Assembly (NCBI GenBank): GCA_944358145.1
Contig: CALVQO010000001.1
Location: 1 to 63,034, forward strand
Reading direction: 5' to 3'
DNA length: 63,034 bases
Source of the DNA: an uncultured Bacilli bacterium
GTDB taxonomy: Bacteria; Bacillota_I; Bacilli_A; RF39; UBA660
The stretch's first letter is position 1, and the number at the start of each line of letters is the position of its first letter. The notes beneath the pieces were generated by a model. It was not told the origin of the DNA. It saw only the letters and a program-made list of their open reading frames with translations, and ran no database searches. Shown one piece after another: positions 4,134 through 54,863 of this stretch. Both the position numbers and the translations under genes were made by a program.

Positions 4134-4224
4134 AAGGGAGCTTTTATGCTTCTTTTTTCTTTCTTTATATTGAAAATATAAGAAAATCATGTTATAATTT
4201 GAATTATGAGGTTGGTGTTATACT

Positions 4225-4971
4225 ATGAGTAAATTTAAAGTTTTAATTTTTACCCTGGTTTTATTCTTTGCTAGTACAACTTATGCTCATGCTGCATGTG
4301 ATGCAAATGAATTAAATACACTTAGGGGTGTTGCATCTAATGTTAGAGTAAGTTATGAAGAGATGAGAGAACCACTTGATCCTTCAGAATATACTCCACC
4401 AGATGGAACAAGTTCAGATGATTATACTGCCTATTATACGTTCTTTCGAGTTTATATTACAAATTTAACAGAAGATATTTATGTAGAAGTACGTAATAGT
4501 GCTACAGGAGAGACAACTACTTATACTTATGATCAAAGTGATAATGGAACAATTACTTTTGATTGGGAAGAAATTACGGTAATGGTTAATTATACGATTA
4601 CAGTATATAGTTCAAGTAATACTAATTGCCCTGATACAGAATTATATACGTTGTATTTGACTACTCCTAGATTTAATCAATATAGTACTTATGATTTGTG
4701 TGAGGGAGCAGAAGATTTCTATTTGTGTTATGAGTATTTGTCAGTTGAAGATGTTTCTTTTGGAGAGTTTGTCGAATTAGTTGAACGTTATAAAGCTGGA
4801 CAAATTGATGATGGTAGTAACGTGGAAGAACCTGATGATGGAGGTAATGGGTTTATTGCATTTTTGGGTGATCATTATATAGCAATTATTATTATTGCTG
4901 TAGTGGTTATTGCTGTGGGGGTTACTGTAACGGTGATAATAGTGAAAAAGCAAAGGAGAAGAGTAGTATGA
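4225..4971 (+). CDS. exported protein with C-terminal membrane anchor; first gene of the Tad-like operon
   Basis: Signal peptide ending AHA. Acidic Cys-containing ectodomain. C-terminal TM helix plus KKQRRRVV stop-transfer tail. Its stop overlaps the next start (ATGA at 4968). Confidence 0.6.
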   Translation: MSKFKVLIFTLVLFFASTTYAHAACDANELNTLRGVASNVRVSYEEMREPLDPSEYTPPDGTSSDDYTAYYTFFRVYITNLTEDIYVEVRNSATGETTTYTYDQSDNGTITFDWEEITVMVNYTITVYSSSNTNCPDTELYTLYLTTPRFNQYSTYDLCEGAEDFYLCYEYLSVEDVSFGEFVELVERYKAGQIDDGSNVEEPDDGGNGFIAFLGDHYIAIIIIAVVVIAVGVTVTVIIVKKQRRRVV

Positions 4972-7900
4972 AGAAAATACTAAAAAGTATTAGCTTATTT
5001 GCTATTACAATTATGGCTGGCTGTTTATTTATCAGTCATGTAAATGCTGAGACTAGATATGGATCTGTTCATACAAGTGGTGTTACACCAGGATCAACAA
5101 CAACAACAAAGACTTCTACTCATCAGCCACTTCAAGATTTAGGACAAATTGTTATTAAAAAAGAAAATGGCGAAGTTACAGAATATCGTGGTTCCATGCC
5201 GTTTTATATTCATAGTGAAAGCGGAACTGGGTTACCATTTTACTGTTTAGATGCTAACTTAAATGGTTTTGGTACATTAAAGGCTACAAGATTTTTACTA
5301 GGTGATTTTGAAGATAATGTTTATTCTTATGACTTAGCAGTAATGCATGTTATGTTATCTGATGCTAGTTATGAAATTAAGAGTTTAGTTATTCGTACTT
5401 TAACTGCTACATGGAATCACGGCAGAAGTGGTTCTGGTGTAGGGGTTACAGAGGATTCAATGGCTCTTACTAGTGCATATTATGGAATTGCTTATGACTG
5501 GATTACTTCTGATAGTGGTATTAGAGCTAGTTATGATACTATTGCTGGTAGTTTTTCATCAGGAATTATTAGTACTTTAAGTTCTCTAAGTAGTAGAAGT
5601 AAAGGTTATACCTTTAATGATGCGATGGTTGGAAGAGATCAAGCTAAACAATTATTTGCAGAAGCTTTAGAAATTGCTGCTGAATATTTGTCAGGTGATG
5701 GAACTACTCAAGTAGTAGAAGAACCTGCTTCTTCTTGGTCTACTTATCAAGTTGAAGAAAGAGAATATGGTGAATATCATTCTTTCCAAACTACACAAAC
5801 ATTTACTTTAAAGAATTTTACTAATGATGGAAATGCCTCATTTGTTATTGATACTTTAGAGTATGAAGAGGCTTTGGAAGATCTTGGTGTTATTGATCAA
5901 CCTAGAATTGTTGGAATTAAAATTAATGGTACAGATTACACAAATAATTGGGGTTCTTTTTATGGGGCTATAGGTCAGAACCTTTTAGAACCATTAAATA
6001 GTTCCAATGCTATTACTGATGAAATTACTATTGAAATTACTATTGAGTTTTTTGGGGCTACTAATGTCCCAGAAGAATTACAAGGTACATATGGTAATTT
6101 GAATTGTGGTCAACAACCAATGAAATGGCATATGGATTATACTTATAATGATACGGGATTAAATGGTGAATATAGTAACTATTTAGGTGTTGTTTGGGAA
6201 GCTACAAGAAATGATAGCGATTCTGAACATCAAAGATTTGTAAGTATTGAACCAATTGATAATGCTGAAGAAAATGAAGGCGTTTCAGATTCTGTTAATG
6301 GTGAAGTATCATTAATTGATGGATGTAATTGTGATGATTTAGTAGATGCATGTATAGCTTCTGGAAGTCTTGATAGTGAAGAATGTGATGAATTATTTGA
6401 AGCTGACTGTGGTGAATGTGATGAGCTTTATGTTGAATGCAAACTTGGCGATCGAACAGCTTGTGATACTTACAGAGAAACATGTAGTGCTAAATGTGAA
6501 AGTGATGTTTCAACGTTTGAATGTTGTACTGCTGATGGACAATGGTTAGAGATTTCTCAATCTGATAATATAGATGCTTATATTCATGGACCTGATGAGC
6601 CAACTATGTGTTTTGTTAATAAAGTGGATAATCAAAAAGACGAAGAAGATGGTTATCTTGATGCTGAAGGTATAAAAGATGATGTAGATAATTCTTATAC
6701 AGAAATTAAGGGTAAGAAATATTGCTTAGTTTCTTGTAAAGAAGATTATAATATGTCTATGCCTGCCGCTAAACTTGTAAATGCAGGTAGATACTTTACT
6801 TTTAACGCTGCAATAGATGGTACTAAGACATGTTATACTAATACAATTGATAGAGAATTATATAACGAAGATATCATTGAAATTCAAAAGAGAATATATA
6901 CTGCATATAATGGATATATTAGATATTGGACTGCTCTGAATCAGGGACATCCGCATAGTGAAGAGCTTGAGGAAATCGTTACTAGTTGTACTCCAAATTG
7001 TAACAGAAATACTGAAACAACGGGTCAGTATATTCCTGGCGCTACTACTGATCCATTTGATTATGTTATTTATGAACCTGATTTTGATGAAAATACTGGT
7101 CAAGTAACTAGTTTAAATCCTCAGAAAGTTACTGGTGACGTAATTTCTCAGGATTCTAAAGTTACGCCTAATACTAATGGGCCAATTTCATGTCCGTATA
7201 AATATCTGGGTCCAGATGGAAAGGAACATACAGGACATCGTGATAAAAGTTGTACTTGGTATAGTTATGAGGAGTATACTGGTGAAGATTTAAGAACTGA
7301 TTTAGAAAAAGAAATGAATGGTTATAAAACAGCTCTTGAAACTGCTTTGGCTGATTATAAAGCTGCAATTGAAGAGTATAATTCATGTTCTGAGTGGAGT
7401 TCTGAAATAAAATATAAACCTGATGTTTATTATGATTATGAAGAGGATTATTTAGCTGACCATTATAATAATCGTGGAGAAATGGATCCAACTGTTGAAA
7501 GTAAAAATAATTCTGAATGGTACTGTAATGGTAATTTTACTTCTTTTGTTGATTATGGTAAAATTAATAACGAATATGATCAATGTAATAATTCTACTGG
7601 ATATCAAACTCATGAAATGACTTATATAATTTGTGATCCTGATAAGAGGGAATGTAAAGAAGATAAAAAACAGATGTCAGATGCTACTTATAAGAAGGTT
7701 ACTTCTCAAATAAGCGTAACCTATAAACCAGCTACAATGTTCTATAATGAATATCCTAGTGGAATGGTTGGACCTATTGATGATATGCCAGATCAGAATG
7801 CTATACCAATTGAAAATGCTTTACCTGTTGCTCTTGATACAGCTCGTGGTATTTATGAATATTCAGTTCATGTTAATAACTTGGGTGAGTATTATGATAC

Positions 7901-8654
7901 TGACGATGTAGGACGTTTAGTTGGTGGTAGTGGCCGTCAAGATGCTGTTGTTAATGATGGTTCATTTGATGTATATCTTGGTGATGATGGCTCTATTCAA
8001 TATATGTGTGCTTATCTAGTTAATATGGGAACTATGGATGAAGACTTTAATATTGTTTGTGACTGGGATAATTGTGAAGATGGTGACTGTACATCTAATT
8101 GTGTTGGTCCAAACTGTGAAACTGGTGATGAAGAATGTTATGGTGAAGACTGTGTGTCTAAGTGTATTGGCGCTGGATGTATATACGATTCATATGCAGG
8201 TTCATCATTACTTGAAAGAGTTATATCTTTAAATAATTTATTCCCTAATGGAACTGATTCTTATAACTGGAATCGTGAAGTAAATGAAAAGGCTGCTGAA
8301 ACTATTGATCAAATAGAGGATGCTGGAAATGCTATTTATGATGAAGAACCAATTTTAAGTGTTACTATATCACCAAGTACTGCTAGAGAGATTAAAGCTT
8401 ATAATGATGATGCTGAAAGCGATGGTGGATATTCAAATTCTACATTGATCTGTGAATCTGTTGGTGGATATGATATGATTGGATGTTATAGTACATTTAT
8501 TGATGATTTAATTGATGGTGTATATGGCTCTGATATTATTAATGATCGAAGTTTGATTATGGGCGGAAGCTATCGTAGCAATAGTAGTAATTATTTCAAA
8601 TTATGGGATGGTACAATAGATGCAGAAAGCATGCTTGGACCATCTTGGTATTAG
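4968..8654 (+). CDS. 1,228-aa secreted cysteine-rich protein of unknown function
   Basis: Long uninterrupted ORF in AT-rich DNA. Signal peptide (..ISHVNA/ET). Two dense Cys clusters at about nt 6324-6530 and 8058-8180. No C-terminal anchor. Confidence 0.8.
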   Translation: MKKILKSISLFAITIMAGCLFISHVNAETRYGSVHTSGVTPGSTTTTKTSTHQPLQDLGQIVIKKENGEVTEYRGSMPFYIHSESGTGLPFYCLDANLNGFGTLKATRFLLGDFEDNVYSYDLAVMHVMLSDASYEIKSLVIRTLTATWNHGRSGSGVGVTEDSMALTSAYYGIAYDWITSDSGIRASYDTIAGSFSSGIISTLSSLSSRSKGYTFNDAMVGRDQAKQLFAEALEIAAEYLSGDGTTQVVEEPASSWSTYQVEEREYGEYHSFQTTQTFTLKNFTNDGNASFVIDTLEYEEALEDLGVIDQPRIVGIKINGTDYTNNWGSFYGAIGQNLLEPLNSSNAITDEITIEITIEFFGATNVPEELQGTYGNLNCGQQPMKWHMDYTYNDTGLNGEYSNYLGVVWEATRNDSDSEHQRFVSIEPIDNAEENEGVSDSVNGEVSLIDGCNCDDLVDACIASGSLDSEECDELFEADCGECDELYVECKLGDRTACDTYRETCSAKCESDVSTFECCTADGQWLEISQSDNIDAYIHGPDEPTMCFVNKVDNQKDEEDGYLDAEGIKDDVDNSYTEIKGKKYCLVSCKEDYNMSMPAAKLVNAGRYFTFNAAIDGTKTCYTNTIDRELYNEDIIEIQKRIYTAYNGYIRYWTALNQGHPHSEELEEIVTSCTPNCNRNTETTGQYIPGATTDPFDYVIYEPDFDENTGQVTSLNPQKVTGDVISQDSKVTPNTNGPISCPYKYLGPDGKEHTGHRDKSCTWYSYEEYTGEDLRTDLEKEMNGYKTALETALADYKAAIEEYNSCSEWSSEIKYKPDVYYDYEEDYLADHYNNRGEMDPTVESKNNSEWYCNGNFTSFVDYGKINNEYDQCNNSTGYQTHEMTYIICDPDKRECKEDKKQMSDATYKKVTSQISVTYKPATMFYNEYPSGMVGPIDDMPDQNAIPIENALPVALDTARGIYEYSVHVNNLGEYYDTDDVGRLVGGSGRQDAVVNDGSFDVYLGDDGSIQYMCAYLVNMGTMDEDFNIVCDWDNCEDGDCTSNCVGPNCETGDEECYGEDCVSKCIGAGCIYDSYAGSSLLERVISLNNLFPNGTDSYNWNREVNEKAAETIDQIEDAGNAIYDEEPILSVTISPSTAREIKAYNDDAESDGGYSNSTLICESVGGYDMIGCYSTFIDDLIDGVYGSDIINDRSLIMGGSYRSNSSNYFKLWDGTIDAESMLGPSWY

Positions 8655-8673
8655 GAAAGAGGTGCTGTAGAAA

Positions 8674-9096
8674 ATGACGCAATCTTCATATTGGGGTTAT
8701 TGGTTAATTACTTTTGGTGTTGCCATTGTAGGTTTAATGATTTCAGTACAAGGAATTACTACTAATACCACCCAAGATAGTTATGCGATAAGAGAAATAG
8801 CTGAAGCTTCAATGCTTGAAGCTGTAGATTATGGTTATTATCGTGATTATAATGAAATTAAAATTAATAAAGAAAAATTTATGGAAGTCTTTATTAGAAT
8901 GACTGCTGAAGTTATGGGAGTGAATGATTCATATGAAGTTAACTTTTATGCTATTTATGAAGCTCCCCCTAAGGTCAGCGTTGAAATAAAAACTAATAGT
9001 GGTACTAATTTTATTAATACTGGTGATTATGATACTGTTAGTAGAATAGATGCTATTATTCAGATTCATGCTGAAGAAGTAGGAGAGGAAGAATAA
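8674..9096 (+). CDS. small N-terminally anchored protein (possible minor pilin / pseudopilin-like component)
   Basis: RBS GAAAGAGGTG. Single N-terminal hydrophobic helix (WLITFGVAIVGLMISV) followed by a 110-aa soluble domain. No class III signal motif seen. Confidence 0.5.
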   Translation: MTQSSYWGYWLITFGVAIVGLMISVQGITTNTTQDSYAIREIAEASMLEAVDYGYYRDYNEIKINKEKFMEVFIRMTAEVMGVNDSYEVNFYAIYEAPPKVSVEIKTNSGTNFINTGDYDTVSRIDAIIQIHAEEVGEEE

Positions 9097-9106
9097 GGAG
9101 GATAAA

Positions 9107-9949
9107 ATGGGGAATATAGTAACAACGATTAAAAGATTTTTATCAAATAAAAATACTATTACTATACTTGGTGTGTTAGCTGGAATTGTAGTTTTGTATT
9201 TAGGTTATAATTATCGTGTTGATCAAGCGATTGACACAATAGCTATTCCATATGCTAGAGAAACAATTACAGCAACTTCAGAAATTACTCAGGAAATGGT
9301 CGATACAACAGAAGTTCTAAGATCTTTTGTTTCCGCTAATAGTAATGTTATTACTGGTATGGATGCTTTAATTAATCAAACAGATCCTAGGTGTATTACA
9401 TATGGAACTAGTGTTCCACAAGGTGCTTTTTTCTACACTGAACAAGTTGTTTCATGTAGTTCAGCACCAAATGATCCACTTAAGAATATGCCTGATGGTT
9501 ATGCGCCATTCTCTTTATCAGTAGATATTCATACTACTTATGGTAATTCTATGTATCCTGGTGATTTTATCGATTTGTATGTTAAAATGACTAGTCGTGA
9601 TAATCGAATTATATTTGGTAAATTTATTGAAAAAATTGAAATTTTGGATGTTCGTGATAGTCAAGGTATTAGTGTATTCTTGACTAGTGAAGCGAGAACT
9701 CCTGCAGAATTATTGTTTGCAGTTCCAGAGGATTTGTTCTTGTTATTAAGTAAAGCAACCTATGTTAACAGTGTAGAGATTATACCAGTACCTAGAAATG
9801 CTTCTTATACCACAAATCCAGGAGAGACAGCTGTAACTAGTGAATACCTACGAAATGAAATTGAATATTATACTCAGGATATTCCGGATGAAGTAGTTCA
9901 ATATCCACCAAGTAGTAGTAATAATGATGATACAACTACAACGGAATAA
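9107..9949 (+). CDS. CpaB/RcpC-like Flp-pilus assembly protein
   Basis: N-terminal TM, a SAF-like segment (ITATSEITQEMVDTTEV), then a PGDFIDLYV ... IEILDVRD pattern as in CpaB. RBS AAGGAGG. Confidence 0.65.
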   Translation: MGNIVTTIKRFLSNKNTITILGVLAGIVVLYLGYNYRVDQAIDTIAIPYARETITATSEITQEMVDTTEVLRSFVSANSNVITGMDALINQTDPRCITYGTSVPQGAFFYTEQVVSCSSAPNDPLKNMPDGYAPFSLSVDIHTTYGNSMYPGDFIDLYVKMTSRDNRIIFGKFIEKIEILDVRDSQGISVFLTSEARTPAELLFAVPEDLFLLLSKATYVNSVEIIPVPRNASYTTNPGETAVTSEYLRNEIEYYTQDIPDEVVQYPPSSSNNDDTTTTE

Positions 9950-9977
9950 AGATAAAGAATAAAAGGGAGGTGCTTAT

Positions 9978-11066
9978 GTGAATGATGCTATATTTTCACA
10001 AATTGATTTTGGACCGTTAAAAGAATTTATTGATATTGATGATATTACCGATATTTCTTATACTAATGGTGGTCAATTGTGGTTAAAAAGTTTGTCTAAG
10101 GGTGTGTATCGTGTTGAAAGGCCAGAGATAAATAATGCTTTAATTGAAAAATTAGCTTTTCAATGCTCTAACGTAATGGGTAAAACATTCAATATGGCAC
10201 ATCCTTTTTTAGATGCTGAGTCTACTGAGCTTCGTCTTAACTTTGTTCACGATTCAATTGCAACGAATGGTATAGCTTTAGTTATTCGTAAAACTCCTGC
10301 TAAAATTCGTTTGAATCGTGAAAAGTTACTTAACGAAGATTATGTTAGTGCAGATTTACTTGATTTTCTTCTTAATTGTGTTCAGGGACATGCTAATATT
10401 ATTGTTAGTGGTGAAACTGGTAGTGGTAAAACTGAGCTTGTTAAATATTTAGCTAGTACAACTAAAGAAAATGAAAAAATTATTACTATTGAAGATACTT
10501 TGGAGTTGCACTTAGATCGTATATTTCCACATCGGGATATTGTAGCAATGAAAACTAATAATATTGCTAGTTATTCTGAAGTGTTGGTTACTTGTATGAG
10601 GCAGAACCCAATATGGATATTATTATCTGAGGTTCGTAGTGCAGAAGCTGTAATGGCAGTTCGTAACTCTATTTCTTCTGGACACCATATTATTTCTACT
10701 ATCCACTCAGATAAAGCTGCATTGATTCCTATGCGTATGTATAGTTTAATTGAGTCTAATATTGATGTTGAACAATTTGTTACAACTATTCACAGATATG
10801 TACAAATAGGTATTTATGTTAAGGGTTATATGAGTGCAAAGTATGGAAGATTCCAAAGAGAAATTATGGAAATTTGTGAATTTTATGTAGATGAGAATAA
10901 TAAACCTCAAGTTAATACAATTTATCAGAAAACTTTAGATGGAAGATTTACTCTTAATAATCCAACTAAACATTTAAGAGATTATTTAGCAATTCAGGGT
11001 GTTATTTTGGAAGAAGATTTATTTCATTTGAATGGCAAAAAAATGGATACGATAGAATCTTTATAA
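9978..11066 (+). CDS. CpaF/TadA/VirB11-type secretion ATPase
   Basis: Walker A GETGSGKTE, ITIEDTLEL (Asp box), Walker B ILLSEVR, His box STIHS. GTG start 5 nt after AAGGGAGGTG. Confidence 0.85.
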   Translation: MNDAIFSQIDFGPLKEFIDIDDITDISYTNGGQLWLKSLSKGVYRVERPEINNALIEKLAFQCSNVMGKTFNMAHPFLDAESTELRLNFVHDSIATNGIALVIRKTPAKIRLNREKLLNEDYVSADLLDFLLNCVQGHANIIVSGETGSGKTELVKYLASTTKENEKIITIEDTLELHLDRIFPHRDIVAMKTNNIASYSEVLVTCMRQNPIWILLSEVRSAEAVMAVRNSISSGHHIISTIHSDKAALIPMRMYSLIESNIDVEQFVTTIHRYVQIGIYVKGYMSAKYGRFQREIMEICEFYVDENNKPQVNTIYQKTLDGRFTLNNPTKHLRDYLAIQGVILEEDLFHLNGKKMDTIESL

Positions 11067-11079
11067 AAGGAGGAAAATC

Positions 11080-11976
11080 ATGGAATTTGTAATAATATTT
11101 TTTATCGCGATGTTTGTTGTTATATATCGTAAGAATGATGGTTCTGAAACCTTTTATAAGTTTGTAAAATCTCAATTTGGGATAGTTTATGAAAAATATG
11201 CTCCTTATAGTTATAAAACGATAAGTGCTAAAATGAAAGAATTAAAGCAAGAATATACAGTAAAAGATTATGTTTTACAAATTGTAGTTATTGGTGGACT
11301 TGCAGCAGCGATTGCTTATTTGTACTTTTATAGTTTAATTGTTGTGATTATCTATGTAGCTATAGCTGTAGCTTTTATTCCTTATTTAGCTTTCTTAAGA
11401 AGTAAAAGATTATATAGTGAGTATATTTTTGAACAAATTCAAGTATATACTACTAATGTTATTATGGAATTTAATACTACTCAAAGTTTTGTTAAATCAT
11501 TAGAGGGTGTTAGAGATTCAGGAATTCTTGAGGATCCAGTACTAGAAGATGTTAAGACAATGATTAATATGTCTTATCAAAATGGTACTATTGATGAATC
11601 TATTGAGTATTTTAATCAAAAATATCCTTATTATATGGTCAAGAATATGCATCAATTATTTTTACAAATTACTAAAGAAGGTGCTAAAGATTCAGGTGAA
11701 TCTTTGGAGAATATGAGTATGGATATTGATGCTTTAGTTGAAGGTGTTTATCGTGATCAAATGGATCGTAAACAGTTTCATACTAAGTTTATTACTTTCG
11801 CATTAGTTTTATTCTTCTTAGTATTAGTTATGCAAGTATTACTGGGAAAAGATAGTTATTTGCAACTTCTTGATTTGTGGTATGTTCATATTGTTCTACA
11901 TGCGATTATTATTATTAATTGTTATTTCCTTCTTAGTGGAGAGAAATATTATAATGAAAATGTGGGGGTAGAATAG
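11080..11976 (+). CDS. TadB-like (T2SS-F family) inner-membrane platform protein
   Basis: Topology is N-terminal TMs, an about 130-aa cytoplasmic helical domain, and C-terminal TMs. It lies directly after the ATPase. RBS AAAGGAGG. Confidence 0.55.
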   Translation: MEFVIIFFIAMFVVIYRKNDGSETFYKFVKSQFGIVYEKYAPYSYKTISAKMKELKQEYTVKDYVLQIVVIGGLAAAIAYLYFYSLIVVIIYVAIAVAFIPYLAFLRSKRLYSEYIFEQIQVYTTNVIMEFNTTQSFVKSLEGVRDSGILEDPVLEDVKTMINMSYQNGTIDESIEYFNQKYPYYMVKNMHQLFLQITKEGAKDSGESLENMSMDIDALVEGVYRDQMDRKQFHTKFITFALVLFFLVLVMQVLLGKDSYLQLLDLWYVHIVLHAIIIINCYFLLSGEKYYNENVGVE

Positions 11977-11977
11977 T

Positions 11978-12766
11978 ATGCAGATAGAAATTGCTATTTT
12001 GGCAGTAATTATTTTCTTTGTACTATCTTATAGTGGTAAGATTAGTATTAATAAGTTAGTTGCAGATAATGAAATGTATTTAAGAAGATTAAAAGAAAGT
12101 GATTATGACTTTTATGTTAAAGCTAAATATGGGGATTCTGTTAATCCGGATTTGCTATTTAATAAAAGAATTAGAAATGCTTTAATTATTACTGTTTTAG
12201 TATTTTGTTTACTTATTTCTAATATGTCTTATGTGTATGCTTTAGTTTGTATTGTAGTTGGATTTGCTTTCTTTAAATTAGATTATATTAATTTAAAAAA
12301 TTATTATAAGAAACATTTGCATGAAATTGATACGATGTTACCTTATTATTTAAAGGGACTTGAAATATTAATTCAACATTATACTGTTCCAGTTGCAATA
12401 GGTAAATCTTTAGATGATGCACCAGATATATTTAAGGATGGGTTGAAAGAATTAATTAATGCAATAAATGCTGGTGATGATACTATTGAGCCTTATATGG
12501 CATTTGCAAGACAGTATCCAGTTAGAGATTCTATGAGAATGATGCGTCTTTTATATCGGTTAAGTTTAGGTAGACAAGAGCGTAAGCAAGAACAATTACT
12601 AGCATTTTCAAGAACGATTTCTAGTTTGCAACAAAAAGCAAGAGAAACAAAATATAAGAATCGTTTGGATAAAATGGAAAGTAAAACAATGAGTATGCTT
12701 GTAACTACTGGCCTTGGAGTAGTAATATTGCTAATATTTGCTGTATTATTACTGATGAATGTTTAG
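11978..12766 (+). CDS. TadC-like (T2SS-F family) inner-membrane platform protein
   Basis: Same topology class as the preceding gene. Its start is 1 nt after the previous stop. Confidence 0.55.
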   Translation: MQIEIAILAVIIFFVLSYSGKISINKLVADNEMYLRRLKESDYDFYVKAKYGDSVNPDLLFNKRIRNALIITVLVFCLLISNMSYVYALVCIVVGFAFFKLDYINLKNYYKKHLHEIDTMLPYYLKGLEILIQHYTVPVAIGKSLDDAPDIFKDGLKELINAINAGDDTIEPYMAFARQYPVRDSMRMMRLLYRLSLGRQERKQEQLLAFSRTISSLQQKARETKYKNRLDKMESKTMSMLVTTGLGVVILLIFAVLLLMNV

Positions 12767-12787
12767 ACAAAATTTGACAGTAAAAAC

Positions 12788-12816
12788 TTGACAATGGACT
12801 TAAGTTAGGATACAAT
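12788..12816 (+). promoter_or_regulatory. consensus sigma-A promoter for the two-TM protein gene
   Basis: TTGACA (12788-12793), a 17-nt spacer, TACAAT (12811-12816). A second TTGACA sits at 12774. Confidence 0.7.
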
Positions 12817-12847
12817 TAGTATAGATGAAGAAAGCGAGGAATTTTAT

Positions 12848-13252
12848 ATGTTAATTATGGCTAGACCTGCTATTTGTTCAGATTTATGGGAAATTTGGCA
12901 AATTATTGGATGGGTACTATGGATTTTTAAAATTGTTATACCAATTATTATTATTCTTTTTGGTATGATCGATTTAGGAAAAGCAGTAGTTGCAAGTAAA
13001 GATGATGAAATTAAGAAATCAGTTAAATCACTTGTTATGAGAGCGATCGCTGGTGTAATTATCTTCTTTATTCCAACAATTATTGGTTTAATCTTTGGTA
13101 TCGTTGGTGATTTCTCAGAAGTAGAAGCAGAGTATAATATATGTCGTAGTTGTATAACTAATCCAGGTGGTTGTGAGGCTGCTGCACAAAGTGGTTGTGC
13201 TGAGTTAGGTGGTACTTGGATGGATGGTACTTGTAGTATACCTGAAGAATAA
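12848..13252 (+). CDS. two-TM VirB2/Maff2-like small membrane protein with Cys-rich C-terminal tail
   Basis: Two hydrophobic helices separated by the charged loop DLGKAVVASKDDEIKK. The loop and second helix align without gaps to the ICE protein at 53949-54143. The tail has 6 Cys. It has its own promoter. Confidence 0.6.
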   Translation: MLIMARPAICSDLWEIWQIIGWVLWIFKIVIPIIIILFGMIDLGKAVVASKDDEIKKSVKSLVMRAIAGVIIFFIPTIIGLIFGIVGDFSEVEAEYNICRSCITNPGGCEAAAQSGCAELGGTWMDGTCSIPEE

Positions 13253-13263
13253 AAGATTTTAGG

Positions 13264-13289
13264 GAATGATTAAGTTCATTCTTTTTTTT
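13264..13289 (+). terminator. intrinsic terminator, identical copy of the lysS terminator
   Basis: GAATGATTAAGTTCATTCTTTTTTTT is 26/26 identical to 2534-2559. Confidence 0.8.
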
Positions 13290-13586: not shown

Positions 13587-15902
13587 ATGGAACAAGTAAT
13601 TATTATAACTACAGAAGAAAATAAAAAAAGCATATTAAGAAAAAATAGTAGTCAACATATTTTTTATCATTTGAAGTTCTATACTTTTCAAGATCTTAAG
13701 AAAAAGTTGTTTTTTGATTATGATTTAAATACAATTTTATTTATTGTTGAGCATTATCATGTGAATATTTCTATTGCTAAAATATATTTAGAAAATTTAT
13801 ATTTTTTAAAGGATTTAGATGATGAAAAAGTTCGTTTCTTGCTTGAGTTAAAGCAATTATTAGATGCTCATGATTTACTTATTTATCATCCTAATTTTAA
13901 AAAGATGTTAGATGGTAAGAAGATTATTGTTTATGGATATCCTGTTCTTAGTAAAGAACAACAGCTTATTTTGGACCAACTTGATTCTAAAATTGAGTTT
14001 CAAGAAGATTTAGAATTATGTTATTTGCCTCAAGTTTATGAAGCTAAAAATATGGATGAAGAGGTAGAATTTGTTGTAAGAAAAATAGAAGAATTATTAG
14101 AACAGGGAATATCAATTAATCATATTAAAATTGTTTGTTCATCTGATTATGATCATATTCTTATTCGTTATTTGTCTATGTATCATTTGCCTTTTCATCA
14201 TCGTAGTACTCATGCTTTTTATAGTACTATGGTTGCTCAAGAGTTTTTAGAGGGTTATGATCATTATTCTATTGAAGAAAATATTTTATTGTTAAGTGAA
14301 AAATATCAAAATGTAAATGAGTTAGTTCGAATTATTAATCGTTCAGTGATGATTCAAGATAAAGATAGACGAAAATATTTTATTATTGAAGATTTAAAAC
14401 AGGTAAAAGTAAAAGAGGCTAGGTATGATCAAGCTTTGGAAATTACAGATTTTCATCATTCTTTTTTAGATGATGATTATGTTTTTTTGCTTGGTTTTCA
14501 TGTGAATTTCTATCCTAAAATTAAAAGAGATACTGAATATTTAAGTGATTTAGTAAAAGAAAAGTTAGGTCTTGATACTACTATAGATTATAATCATTGT
14601 GAAAAATTAACGATGATAAAGAAGATTCATTCCATTAAAAATTTAGTAATTACTTATAAGTTAAATGGGCCTAATGGGGCATGTTATCCATCTATGTTAT
14701 TGGATGAACTTTCTTTAGAAGTAAAACCTGTTGTTTTAGATTCAACTTTATCTTATTCTAAATTACATAGTGAAATTAAATATGCTGAGGCATTAGATCA
14801 ACTATCTAAATTTAATTATATTAGTGAAGATTTAGCTATGTATCAAAATAATTTAGATATTCCTTATTTAGAATATGATAATCAGTTTACGGGAATTAAG
14901 GAAAGTCAATTTAAAGAAAAAATTCATCATGAACTTACTTTATCTTATACGAATATGGAAATGTATCAAGAGTGTGCTTTTCGTTATTATATTAGTAAGG
15001 TTCTTCATTTGGATATATTTTTGGAAACATTTAAAACTATTCTTGGTAGTATTATGCATCATGTATTAGAACAAGGTATTGTTAAAGATATTGATATTCC
15101 TGTAGAAATGATGAAGTTTGTTAAAGAAAAAGAGTATCAATTGAATGCTAAAGAACTTTTTTATTTAGAAGAGTTTAGTGAGGAACTTAAAAAGGTATTA
15201 GCTATTATTCGCCGTCAACAAAGTCATTCTCAGTTGAAGAAATATTTGTTTGAAAATGAGTTTTATGTTTATAAAGATCAAGAGGATATGAAGATTACTT
15301 TTAAGGGAAATATTGATAAAGTGATGTATGATGAAATTGATGGAAAAGAAGTATTAGCTGTAGTGGATTATAAAACAGGTAATACAAATATTACCTTAAA
15401 AAATTTAGATTATGGACTTAATATTCAACTTCCGATTTATCTTTATTTATTAAAAAAATCAGATCGTTTTCATGATGCTTTGATCGCAGGATTTTATATT
15501 CAGAAAGTACTGGCTAAAAAAGAAAATATTCAATTTAAAAAGTCTCTTCAAGAATTGTTAGAGAATAGACTTCGGTTACAGGGATTTACTAATAGTGATG
15601 AAAAATTAATGAAACTAATTGATGATGATTATCAAAATGGAGAAATATTAGCTAATGTACAGTTTAAGAAAGATGGAGGGCTTAGTAGTAAATCTAAAGT
15701 GTTGTCTAATGAAGAGATGGATGAGCTTATTATTAAAGTAGATAATCTTATTGATGAGGTTATTCATAAGATTTTAAATGCCACATTTTTGATTAATCCT
15801 AAAGTAATTGATGGTAAAAACGTAGCTTGTACTTATTGTAAGTTTAGAGATTTGTGTTATCGATGTAAAAAGAATGAAGTTGTTTTAGGAGGTGAAGTAT
15901 GA
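13587..15902 (+). CDS. addB: helicase-nuclease AddAB/RexAB subunit B (short form, about 771 aa)
   Basis: C-terminal PD-(D/E)xK nuclease with VDYKTG, plus Fe-S cysteines (QECAFRYY ... ACTYCKFRDLC). It overlaps addA by 4 nt. ATG 13587 is 10 nt after AGGAGA. No Walker A is visible. Confidence 0.8.
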   Translation: MEQVIIITTEENKKSILRKNSSQHIFYHLKFYTFQDLKKKLFFDYDLNTILFIVEHYHVNISIAKIYLENLYFLKDLDDEKVRFLLELKQLLDAHDLLIYHPNFKKMLDGKKIIVYGYPVLSKEQQLILDQLDSKIEFQEDLELCYLPQVYEAKNMDEEVEFVVRKIEELLEQGISINHIKIVCSSDYDHILIRYLSMYHLPFHHRSTHAFYSTMVAQEFLEGYDHYSIEENILLLSEKYQNVNELVRIINRSVMIQDKDRRKYFIIEDLKQVKVKEARYDQALEITDFHHSFLDDDYVFLLGFHVNFYPKIKRDTEYLSDLVKEKLGLDTTIDYNHCEKLTMIKKIHSIKNLVITYKLNGPNGACYPSMLLDELSLEVKPVVLDSTLSYSKLHSEIKYAEALDQLSKFNYISEDLAMYQNNLDIPYLEYDNQFTGIKESQFKEKIHHELTLSYTNMEMYQECAFRYYISKVLHLDIFLETFKTILGSIMHHVLEQGIVKDIDIPVEMMKFVKEKEYQLNAKELFYLEEFSEELKKVLAIIRRQQSHSQLKKYLFENEFYVYKDQEDMKITFKGNIDKVMYDEIDGKEVLAVVDYKTGNTNITLKNLDYGLNIQLPIYLYLLKKSDRFHDALIAGFYIQKVLAKKENIQFKKSLQELLENRLRLQGFTNSDEKLMKLIDDDYQNGEILANVQFKKDGGLSSKSKVLSNEEMDELIIKVDNLIDEVIHKILNATFLINPKVIDGKNVACTYCKFRDLCYRCKKNEVVLGGEV

Positions 15903-53790: not shown

Positions 53791-53948
53791 ATAAGTTATT
53801 TCAAAATAAAAAGTCGAGAGAATGTCCTTATAAATCTCGACCAATTAAATTTTATCATAAATAATAATAGGAATACAACTCTCATGATTGGGGGTTATTT
53901 TTTATAGAAGGAGTTTTAGCAGATGTATTAGCGTTAATTAATGATGCA

Positions 53949-54143
53949 ATGGGATACATTAAACTTTTTGTTATTGGTGGAACAGCTTTTTTTGTTGCCA
54001 AAGATTATGCTCTTAAAATGGCAAGCTCAGATGATAACGAAAAAGCAAGTTACGATAGAAAGGTTAAAACAACTATTATTGCAGGTGTTTGTGCATTAAT
54101 TACAACTCAATTTGTTTCTTGGGTATTGGGGTACTTTCAATAA
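53949..54143 (+). CDS. Maff2/VirB2-like two-TM small protein of the conjugation module
   Basis: 64 aa: a TM, the charged loop KMASSDDNEKASYDRK, then a second TM. Its stop overlaps the next start (TAATG). Confidence 0.5.
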   Translation: MGYIKLFVIGGTAFFVAKDYALKMASSDDNEKASYDRKVKTTIIAGVCALITTQFVSWVLGYFQ

Positions 54144-54810: not shown

Positions 54811-54863
54811 TAGTGCAAAATATTTAAATATTTGTTAAAATATAAGCAAATATGGAGGCTATT

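Follow-up and report, generated by a model that had tools for sequence, protein, structure and literature searches.

The window analysed here, by which we mean the whole stretch of 63,034 nucleotides from an uncultured Bacilli bacterium, carries a gene (12848..13252, + strand) for a protein of 134 amino acids (aa) with two hydrophobic helices. Based on its open reading frame (ORF) and on homologue and profile searches, the protein is one of the short, 'type A' members of a family that is PF18895-like (VirB2-like) and specific to the lineage. It stands behind an operon on the same strand (4225..12766) that encodes a 248-aa protein, a 1228-aa Cys-rich secreted protein, DUF5411, a CpaB-like protein, a VirB11/CpaF-type ATPase and a pair of 298-aa and 262-aa proteins. 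The members of this pair are paralogous membrane proteins, which we call tadB- and tadC-like. They gave no match to T2SSF (PF00482) even at E<10, real T2SSF genes being present on contigs C90 and C55 of the same genome, so that the tadB/tadC identity is taken from the context alone. An AlphaFold2 (AF2) model of the 298-aa tadB-like protein, built on a shallow alignment, was poor (predicted local distance difference test, pLDDT, 61) and made a fold search meaningless. The 262-aa gene has its stop at 12766, and 81 nt separate that stop from the ORF. Operon and flanks are syntenic in relatives, with a dcuC-like gene upstream and addBA and lemA downstream.

A first-pass annotation of this DNA had described a 134-aa protein with two hydrophobic helices, and both the ORF and an AF2 model (pLDDT 80; helices 14-48 and 52-86) agree with that description, the hydrophobic parts covering residues about 15-40 and 67-88. 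An N-terminal segment that is predicted to be extracellular and holds a nearly invariant Cys10 (residues 1-14, 12848..12889; alignments A1 and A4) leads into transmembrane helix 1 (residues 15-40, 12890..12967), which lies in AF2 helix 14-48 and at whose first residue the PF18895 match begins (residues 15-82). Then come the loop IDLGKAVVASKDDEIKKSVKSLVMRA, with six basic residues and a predicted cytoplasmic location (residues 41-66, 12968..13045), transmembrane helix 2 with IFFIPT inside (residues 67-88, 13046..13111; AF2 helices 52-73 and 75-86) and an acidic tail, predicted to be extracellular (residues 89-134, 13112..13249; alignments A1 and A4), all on the + strand. The loop is the best-conserved part of the family: its consensus is retained in the diverse members of alignment A4, and D42 to K57 are nearly all invariant among 37 orthologues. 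F73, F74 and P76 of helix 2 are nearly invariant in the same diverse alignment. The tail holds a conserved C99-x2-C102-x3-P106-x2-C109 motif whose three cysteines and proline are invariant in alignment A1, and C10, C99, C102 and C109 are each at least 90% conserved in alignment A4; an additional pair, C118 and C129, is restricted to a long-tailed subgroup. The six cysteines formerly ascribed to the tail are those of the entire protein, five being in the tail (C99, C102, C109, C118, C129) and the sixth being C10. Disulfides would be expected to form among the conserved ones.

The gene appears to be transcribed on its own. The promoter that the first-pass annotation had seen in the 81-nt gap, TTGACA-17-TACAAT, withstood closer study, and so did the claim of separate promotion. 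This sigma-70-type site (12788..12816, + strand) has its TTGACA at 12788-12793, a 17-nt spacer and TACAAT at 12811-12816; it scores 11/12 in a consensus scan and is among the three best sites in 11.3 kb, both strands included, another of which precedes the first operon gene at 4170. A second TTGACA box (12774..12779, + strand) lies 14 nt upstream of the -35 hexamer, and a similar box is kept in same-genus genomes (alignment A3, made of five same-genus intergenic regions); an UP-like element, an operator and an alternative -35 are candidates for its role. In alignment A3 both promoter hexamers and the distance between them are constant in the same-genus genomes G051, G125 and G003 and the flanks diverge; in G003 an additional terminator hairpin sits between the tadC-like gene and the promoter. 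About 60 nt before the start codon, all species loci (79/79) have a promoter match that scores 10/12 or better and has a 17-nt spacer, and 58 of the 79 reach at least 11/12. Random 200-nt windows from the same loci attained 10/12 in 9% of cases and 11/12 in 2%. A ribosome-binding site, GAGGA, follows 8 nt before the ATG (12835..12839, + strand), and, apart from that of G098, all sequences of alignment A3 retain AGCGAGGAA (four of five).

Past the stop codon stands a terminator-like 8-bp hairpin followed by a T-run (13262..13287, + strand; -7.5 kcal/mol), which is energetically weak (z-score -0.96). A hairpin with a T-run within 90 nt of the stop was found in 58/79 species loci vs 24/790 random windows, and the loci that have one after the short hairpin gene include some in which more genes of a type IV secretion system (T4SS) follow. 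Given the conservation of promoter and terminator, we regard the short hairpin gene as a conserved, strongly promoted and mostly self-contained unit, an arrangement that would agree with an abundant subunit. As a separate observation, a near-identical copy of the terminator hairpin (AATGATTAAGTTCATTCTTTTTT core; 24/26 bases of the pattern, with zero expected by chance) is found at 2532-2557, where it follows the gene upstream of the dcuC-like gene.

The 134-aa protein has at least 484 close homologues. The family as a whole comprises 7047 representatives (50% clustering, E<1e-3), 2068 of them below 1e-10, and is built around a conserved unit of C10, helix 1, the loop IDLGKAVVASKDDEIKKS, helix 2 with IFFIPT, and C-x2-C-x3-P-x2-C. 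This hairpin unit makes up whole proteins of 100-150 aa, forms the C-terminal part of secreted proteins (200-560 aa), or stands N-terminally ahead of hydrolase- or esterase-like domains; the long paralogues have a signal peptide and an ectodomain on the N-terminal side. Since ectodomains or enzymes are found at either side of the unit and the loop is basic, both ends are placed outside and the loop inside, and for the 134-aa protein itself the positive-inside rule likewise suggests a cytoplasmic loop. Among 149 sampled genomes of the bacterial family, the hairpin family occurs in 142 (1-12 copies), a VirB6-like gene in 137 and a tadB-like gene in 126. Relatives go by the names Ca. Coprovivens, Ca. 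Ventrenecus and Mycoplasma sp. CAG:776.

PF18895 (T4SS_pilin), the model employed for calling VirB2-like pilins in Patescibacteria, is the only consistent Pfam match of the family. The window protein is matched with 20.1 bits (E 6.6e-4) over profile positions 4-71 of 71, and at E<0.01 so are 33/37 orthologues and 33/56 diverse members. PF18895 was the top match, in the same register, of 10/10 forward sequences (19.6-32.3 bits, three of the ten above the gathering cut-off of 26.6 bits), and of 0/10 reversed sequences at E<0.1, a control on which a compositional artefact was rejected. Judged by sequence, PF18895 membership is valid at the level of the family, as a divergent subfamily, and not for the window sequence alone. 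A VirB2-type subunit is expected to be a small protein with two transmembrane helices, a short basic loop and both termini outside, and the 134-aa protein fits this description with its six Lys/Arg and its predicted topology. It differs from Flp/Tad (type IVc) pilins in having two helices, no G-cleavage motif and no class III signal peptide. The protein had earlier been called VirB2/Maff2-like. We retain the VirB2-like class, on account of PF18895 and of synteny with VirB6, VirB3 and VirB4, and drop Maff2, for which Pfam scans of the 134-aa protein, of a protein from an integrative and conjugative element (ICE) in the same window, and of 37, 56 and 22 homologues gave no match at E<0.1.

The synteny is best seen in other genera, in which the locus is fuller. 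Its first part runs contiguously through a Cys-rich giant protein, DUF5411, a CpaB-like protein, the ATPase, the 298-aa and 262-aa proteins, two Flp-like, two TadE-like and one TadZ-like protein; the type A gene comes next, then further hairpin genes, short or ectodomain-bearing, in an (A/B/C)n array; and the last part consists of VirB6-like and VirB3-like genes, a split VirB4, an M23 hydrolase and a coupling protein (T4CP). In the single complete locus read from end to end (G010), housekeeping genes follow the coupling protein and no relaxase was seen. The Flp-like proteins of the locus measure 67-86 aa and have an MKE..G leader and one helix; no Pfam pilin model matched them. The idea that the 134-aa protein is the missing pilin of the Tad-like operon was rejected, because the Tad-like module has Flp-like pilins of its own. 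Moreover, five genomes without a detected copy of the very conserved tadB-like gene still have short hairpin genes beside the VirB6-like gene, from which it follows that the hairpin goes with the T4SS part, independently of the Tad-like part. The locus is rearranged differently in one species (L119, CALVHK010000011.1), whose short hairpin gene after the tadC-like gene is directly followed by VirB3 and VirB4, no VirB6-like gene being detected between them.

In the genome of the window (G000) these components are dispersed. The profile of the 134-aa family detects three genes in it, and two tandem paralogues (289 and 404 aa) lie on contig C3. The gene that comes right after these two encodes a polytopic protein of 716 aa, for which the Mbov_0396 ICE transmembrane model gave 1.3e-6 and the pLS20_p028 model 2.5e-4, neither match reaching its cut-off. 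The two C3 paralogues lie in a T4SS cluster, as do the orthologues in other genera, and the gene in the window does not. C98 carries VirB3 and VirB4, the latter sharing 70% identity with the VirB4 of G010; the gene for the coupling protein lies on C21 and that for a prepilin peptidase on C90. Contig C31 (9344-11870) carries two Flp-like pilin genes (79 and 78 aa), then two TadE-like genes and one TadZ-like gene; the two pilins have the leaders MKEATGELNMTVV and MKQTMGDLNMTVI, one helix and Cys-rich tails. The 'missing' Flp pilins of the Tad-like operon in the window are therefore to be found on another contig. On C3 (29492-35590; L011:7493-13590) the VirB6-like gene is followed by a 227-aa protein without a family match and then, closing the contig, by a PD-(D/E)XK-type transposase, and the short contig C98 begins with VirB3 and VirB4. 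Probably an insertion split the T4SS operon, or the assembly broke, at the end of C3.

We consider it likely that the 134-aa protein is a VirB2-type pilin-like subunit, of the PF18895 class, and part of a conjugation-derived transfer apparatus, chromosomally encoded and conserved in a family of small-genome gut Bacilli. What carries this reading is firm: membership at the level of the family, the synteny, and the conservation of promoter and terminator. It would also account for the presence of an odd gene behind a Tad-like operon. The interpretation given in the first-pass annotation is partly supported. On our reading the gene codes for a divergent, Cys-clamped, VirB2-like member of the T4SS_pilin class and, transcribed separately, heads the genes of a conjugation-derived machine on the chromosome. 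We picture its workings as follows. Transcribed as its own unit, from the strong conserved promoter to the terminator, in a manner that would suit a subunit needed in many copies, the 134-aa protein would sit in the membrane as a helical hairpin whose two ends are outside and whose invariant lysine-rich loop faces the cytoplasm. Four cysteines (C10 and those of the C-x2-C-x6-C tail) would probably clamp the two outer ends through disulfides. The subunits may then be extracted from the membrane and form a pilus or a short conduit together with VirB6 and VirB4. In the fuller locus of most genera examined, the short gene is the first after the Tad-like motor module, ahead of the longer ectodomain paralogues and the T4SS genes. 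In this genus, rearrangements would have moved the Flp-to-TadZ block (to C31) and the rest of the T4SS (to C3, C98 and C21), leaving the gene behind the tadC-like gene.

Several results weigh against the pilin-like assignment. The gene in the window lies after the tadC-like gene and before addB, and no T4SS gene adjoins it in this genome; in the rearranged lineages generally (window-like loci and loci ending in tadZ-A) the short copy remains with the Tad-like genes and not with VirB6. The window protein falls below the PF18895 gathering cut-off (20.1 vs 26.6 bits), and TrbC/VirB2 (PF04956) gave no match at E<0.1 to the 134-aa protein, to the ICE protein or to their families. Classical VirB2 has a cleaved N-terminal leader; the short form has 14 residues before helix 1, without a signal-peptide-like segment. 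A Foldseek search of the AF2 model against the PDB returned no match below E 7, although a helical hairpin is too simple for this search to be informative, and the family profile run against PDB sequences found spurious membrane matches only and no solved pilin. Links to pLS20, a plasmid system with a similar gene order that we describe below, are also thin at the sequence level: they exist only for the ATPase, the link of the VirB6-like protein being weak; VirB4 has its best plasmid matches in B. thuringiensis plasmids (28.7%) and not in pLS20; and hhalign of the 267-aa platform-like protein of the pLS20 type against the tadB-like family gave a probability of 3% (P 0.014). Finally, we know of no pilus demonstrated for any Gram-positive T4SS characterised to date.

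The closest known layout is that of the pLS20-type plasmids. In pNARUSE (NZ_AP028060.1) a thioester adhesin, two small proteins, a VirB11-like ATPase, two membrane proteins and two 47-aa Flp-like proteins are followed by a 76-aa hairpin (15412-15642), VirD4, a VirB6-like protein, DUF5592 and VirB4. The 76-aa protein passes PF18895 (32.1 bits) and is, like ours, a two-helix hairpin with a short charged loop; moreover, both hairpins are preceded by a VirB11/CpaF-type ATPase, a pair of membrane proteins and small Flp-like proteins and followed by VirB6-like, VirB3-like and VirB4 genes. Going by the operon order and the PF18895 hairpin, the locus looks like a domesticated pLS20-type apparatus. Sequence backs this likeness only for the ATPase, for VirB4 and the VirB6-like protein, and through PF18895. 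The ATPase has its best plasmid matches in pLS20-type Bacillus plasmids, at 31-32% identity. The VirB4 matches include 67,159-bp B. thuringiensis plasmid records, which we take to be pBMB67. The 76-aa protein reached hhalign probabilities of 0.3% with the 134-aa family and 6% with the ICE family, DUF5411 aligned to the 126-aa protein of the pLS20 type with E 0.46, and neither the 134-aa nor the 298-aa protein had a tblastn match in 72,556 plasmids. In contrast to the pLS20-type protein, the present family has a Cys-clamped tail, an invariant KDDEIKK loop, arrays and ectodomain fusions, and it is chromosomal. Given that pLS20 is well studied and carries a small protein that passes PF18895, the role of this class is testable in a laboratory strain of Bacillus subtilis.

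A second parallel, drawn by description, is the chromosomal T4SS of Patescibacteria (CPR, candidate phyla radiation; Quinonero-Coronel et al. 2025, doi 10.1101/2025.01.22.634366; PMC12857230). There, too, a monoderm with a reduced genome has a Gram-positive-type T4SS, with arrays of divergent PF18895/VirB2-like genes near virB4/virB6 and a type IV pilus-type system besides; in our case the hosts are gut Bacilli of the Bacillota, the pilin genes are next to a Tad-like module, and ectodomains and the conserved cysteine motif are present in many copies. The VirB2/TrbC/TraA proteins of diderm T4SSs (PF04956) are likewise small, share the predicted topology and are linked to virB3, virB4 and virB6, but the family described here differs from them in its lack of a PF04956 match, a short form without a long cleaved leader, a Cys-rich tail and a monoderm envelope. 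The Mbov_0395 family (NF045849) of Mollicutes ICEs also consists of small two-helix proteins encoded upstream of a polytopic VirB6-like protein (Mbov_0396); all matches here are far below the curated cut-offs and the 134-aa protein has no NF045849 match. By analogy only, the archaeal DNA-import pilins CedA1/TedC may be added (Beltran et al. 2023, PMC9905601), which are VirB2-like hairpins of a chromosomal, non-mobile T4SS relative in cells without an outer membrane, though in another domain of life.

According to a 2025 review, VirB2-type subunits have not been found in Gram-positive T4SSs, Patescibacteria excepted (PMC12857230). This statement conflicts with the near-universal presence of a VirB2-like family in one family of uncultured, small-genome gut Bacilli. 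The promoter of the lead copy, strong and conserved, and its terminator are what one expects for a major structural subunit. A 2022 paper predicts a CpaF-PilC-DUF5411 system in Clostridia (PMC9523054); in the literature on RF39 together with type IV secretion, and on DUF5411, we found no description of the locus. A bolder version, which we offer tentatively and regard as rather unlikely, is that the Cys-clamped hairpin subunits build an extracellular filament or conduit. The short form would be its major subunit and the ectodomain paralogues its minor or tip subunits, displaying enzymes and adhesins, and its assembly would be the work of a domesticated, apparently relaxase-less pLS20-type machine in which the Tad-like motor and the VirB4/VirB6 channel cooperate. 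If true, this would be the second monoderm lineage with a T4SS pilus, after Patescibacteria, and a hint of a partner-dependent lifestyle.

The position of the gene in the rearranged lineages raises the question of its partner. The 134-aa protein could work with the adjoining Tad-like motor instead of VirB4/VirB6, either as an unconventional fibre subunit or as a membrane partner of the ATPase and platform proteins, a view not far from the one implied by the first-pass annotation. Indeed, the gene was kept right behind the tadC-like gene here, though the Flp-to-TadZ block and the T4SS genes moved, and G021 has two short copies behind tadZ with VirB6, VirB3 and VirB4 on a different contig. The invariant cytoplasmic loop suggests a conserved cytoplasmic partner, and pLS20-type operons unite both parts in one operon. 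Nonetheless, we find this partnership unlikely: the Tad-like module is already provided with small Flp-like pilins and TadE-like proteins, short copies stand beside VirB6-like genes also where no tadB-like gene was detected, and the family matches a T4SS pilin profile and is without a class III signal peptide. As to its location, a gene with its own promoter and terminator can stay at an operon boundary by chance while the genes around it move.

Another possibility is suggested by the many members in which the hairpin is flanked, on one side or the other, by hydrolase-, esterase- or adhesin-like domains. The hairpin may be a mere membrane anchor or scaffold that shows ectodomains in the long paralogues, or a small Cys-knot in the short form, and that neither leaves the membrane nor polymerises, its PF18895 likeness reflecting a shared simple fold and not a common role. 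The weakness of the PF18895 similarity, the structural match that was not found and the lack of a demonstrated pilus among the characterised Gram-positive systems would all suit an anchor. We hold this to be quite improbable, in view of the tight and very widespread synteny with VirB6-like, VirB3 and VirB4 genes and of an invariant 26-residue cytoplasmic loop for which an anchor has no need. The strong promoter and the terminator of the short form fit a stoichiometric subunit, and the reversed-sequence controls speak against a purely compositional match.

The VirB2-type, pilin-like assignment also bears on the ICE in the window, with which the first-pass annotation had compared the gene. The ICE gene (53904..54143, + strand) encodes a 79-aa two-helix protein, this being its length in nearly all homologues, and not one of 64 aa as previously given, which is what results from the ATG at 53949. 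The homologous N-terminus in the window starts with ATA at 53904 where the homologues have ATG, and this ATA may be a rare start, a weakened start or an assembly error. GGGGG is found about 10 nt upstream of the ATA, and the internal ATG is without a clear ribosome-binding site. PF18895 weakly matched 9/22 homologues of the ICE protein, and for one 79-aa homologue the Mbov_0395 pilin-like model gave E 0.0044. The assignment of the ICE protein to a conjugation module was correct: in related elements its homologues come after a methylase and before TrbL_4 (VirB6-like), PrgI (VirB3-like), VirB4, M23, a MobL relaxase and a coupling protein, and at the window end (61537..62954, + strand) lie a TrbL_4 gene (61537-62679) and a PrgI/DUF5592-like, VirB3-like gene (62679-62954). 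Based on the gene orders of both, the 134-aa type and the ICE protein hold the same slot in two T4SSs, one chromosomal and one mobile, and this position restores the idea of their resemblance in a weaker form.

At the level of sequence the resemblance was less than had been thought. The ungapped 29-residue alignment exists in the register reported, with 8 identities instead of about 9, and BLASTP of the two proteins gave E 0.10, which is not significant. Nor was hhalign of the two families significant, with a probability of 2.5% for close sequences and of 7% (P 0.005) for a diverse profile, the latter in the register of the earlier alignment. In this genome the profile of the 134-aa family did not find the ICE gene among its three genes at E<0.01. 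That the 134-aa gene is a recent copy or capture of the ICE gene, the two being close paralogues exchanged between element and chromosome, is hardly credible and was rejected on these BLASTP, hhalign and family-profile results: for all the recovered register, the weak PF18895 matches of both proteins and the place before a VirB6-like gene that both occupy, the chromosomal gene has been conserved vertically (142/149 genomes, with syntenic flanks) and its Cys motif is absent from the ICE family.

Some minor observations may be added on the surroundings. Between the hairpin gene and TrbL_4 of the ICE (54852-61279) lie a thioester/SpaA adhesin, a sortase, a camelysin-like protein and a signal peptidase. 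The elements related to this ICE differ from it in having adhesin and sortase upstream of the methylase. The 1.2-Mb genome has canonical type IV pilus genes as well: C90 carries a PilC-type protein with two T2SSF domains together with the prepilin peptidase, C55 a second T2SSE ATPase and two T2SSF proteins, and C64 another T2SSE ATPase. DUF5411, a protein of 140 aa in the window (8674-9096), is in a related species (L001:4819-6267) a 482-aa fusion with Peptidase_M15, a cell-wall hydrolase.

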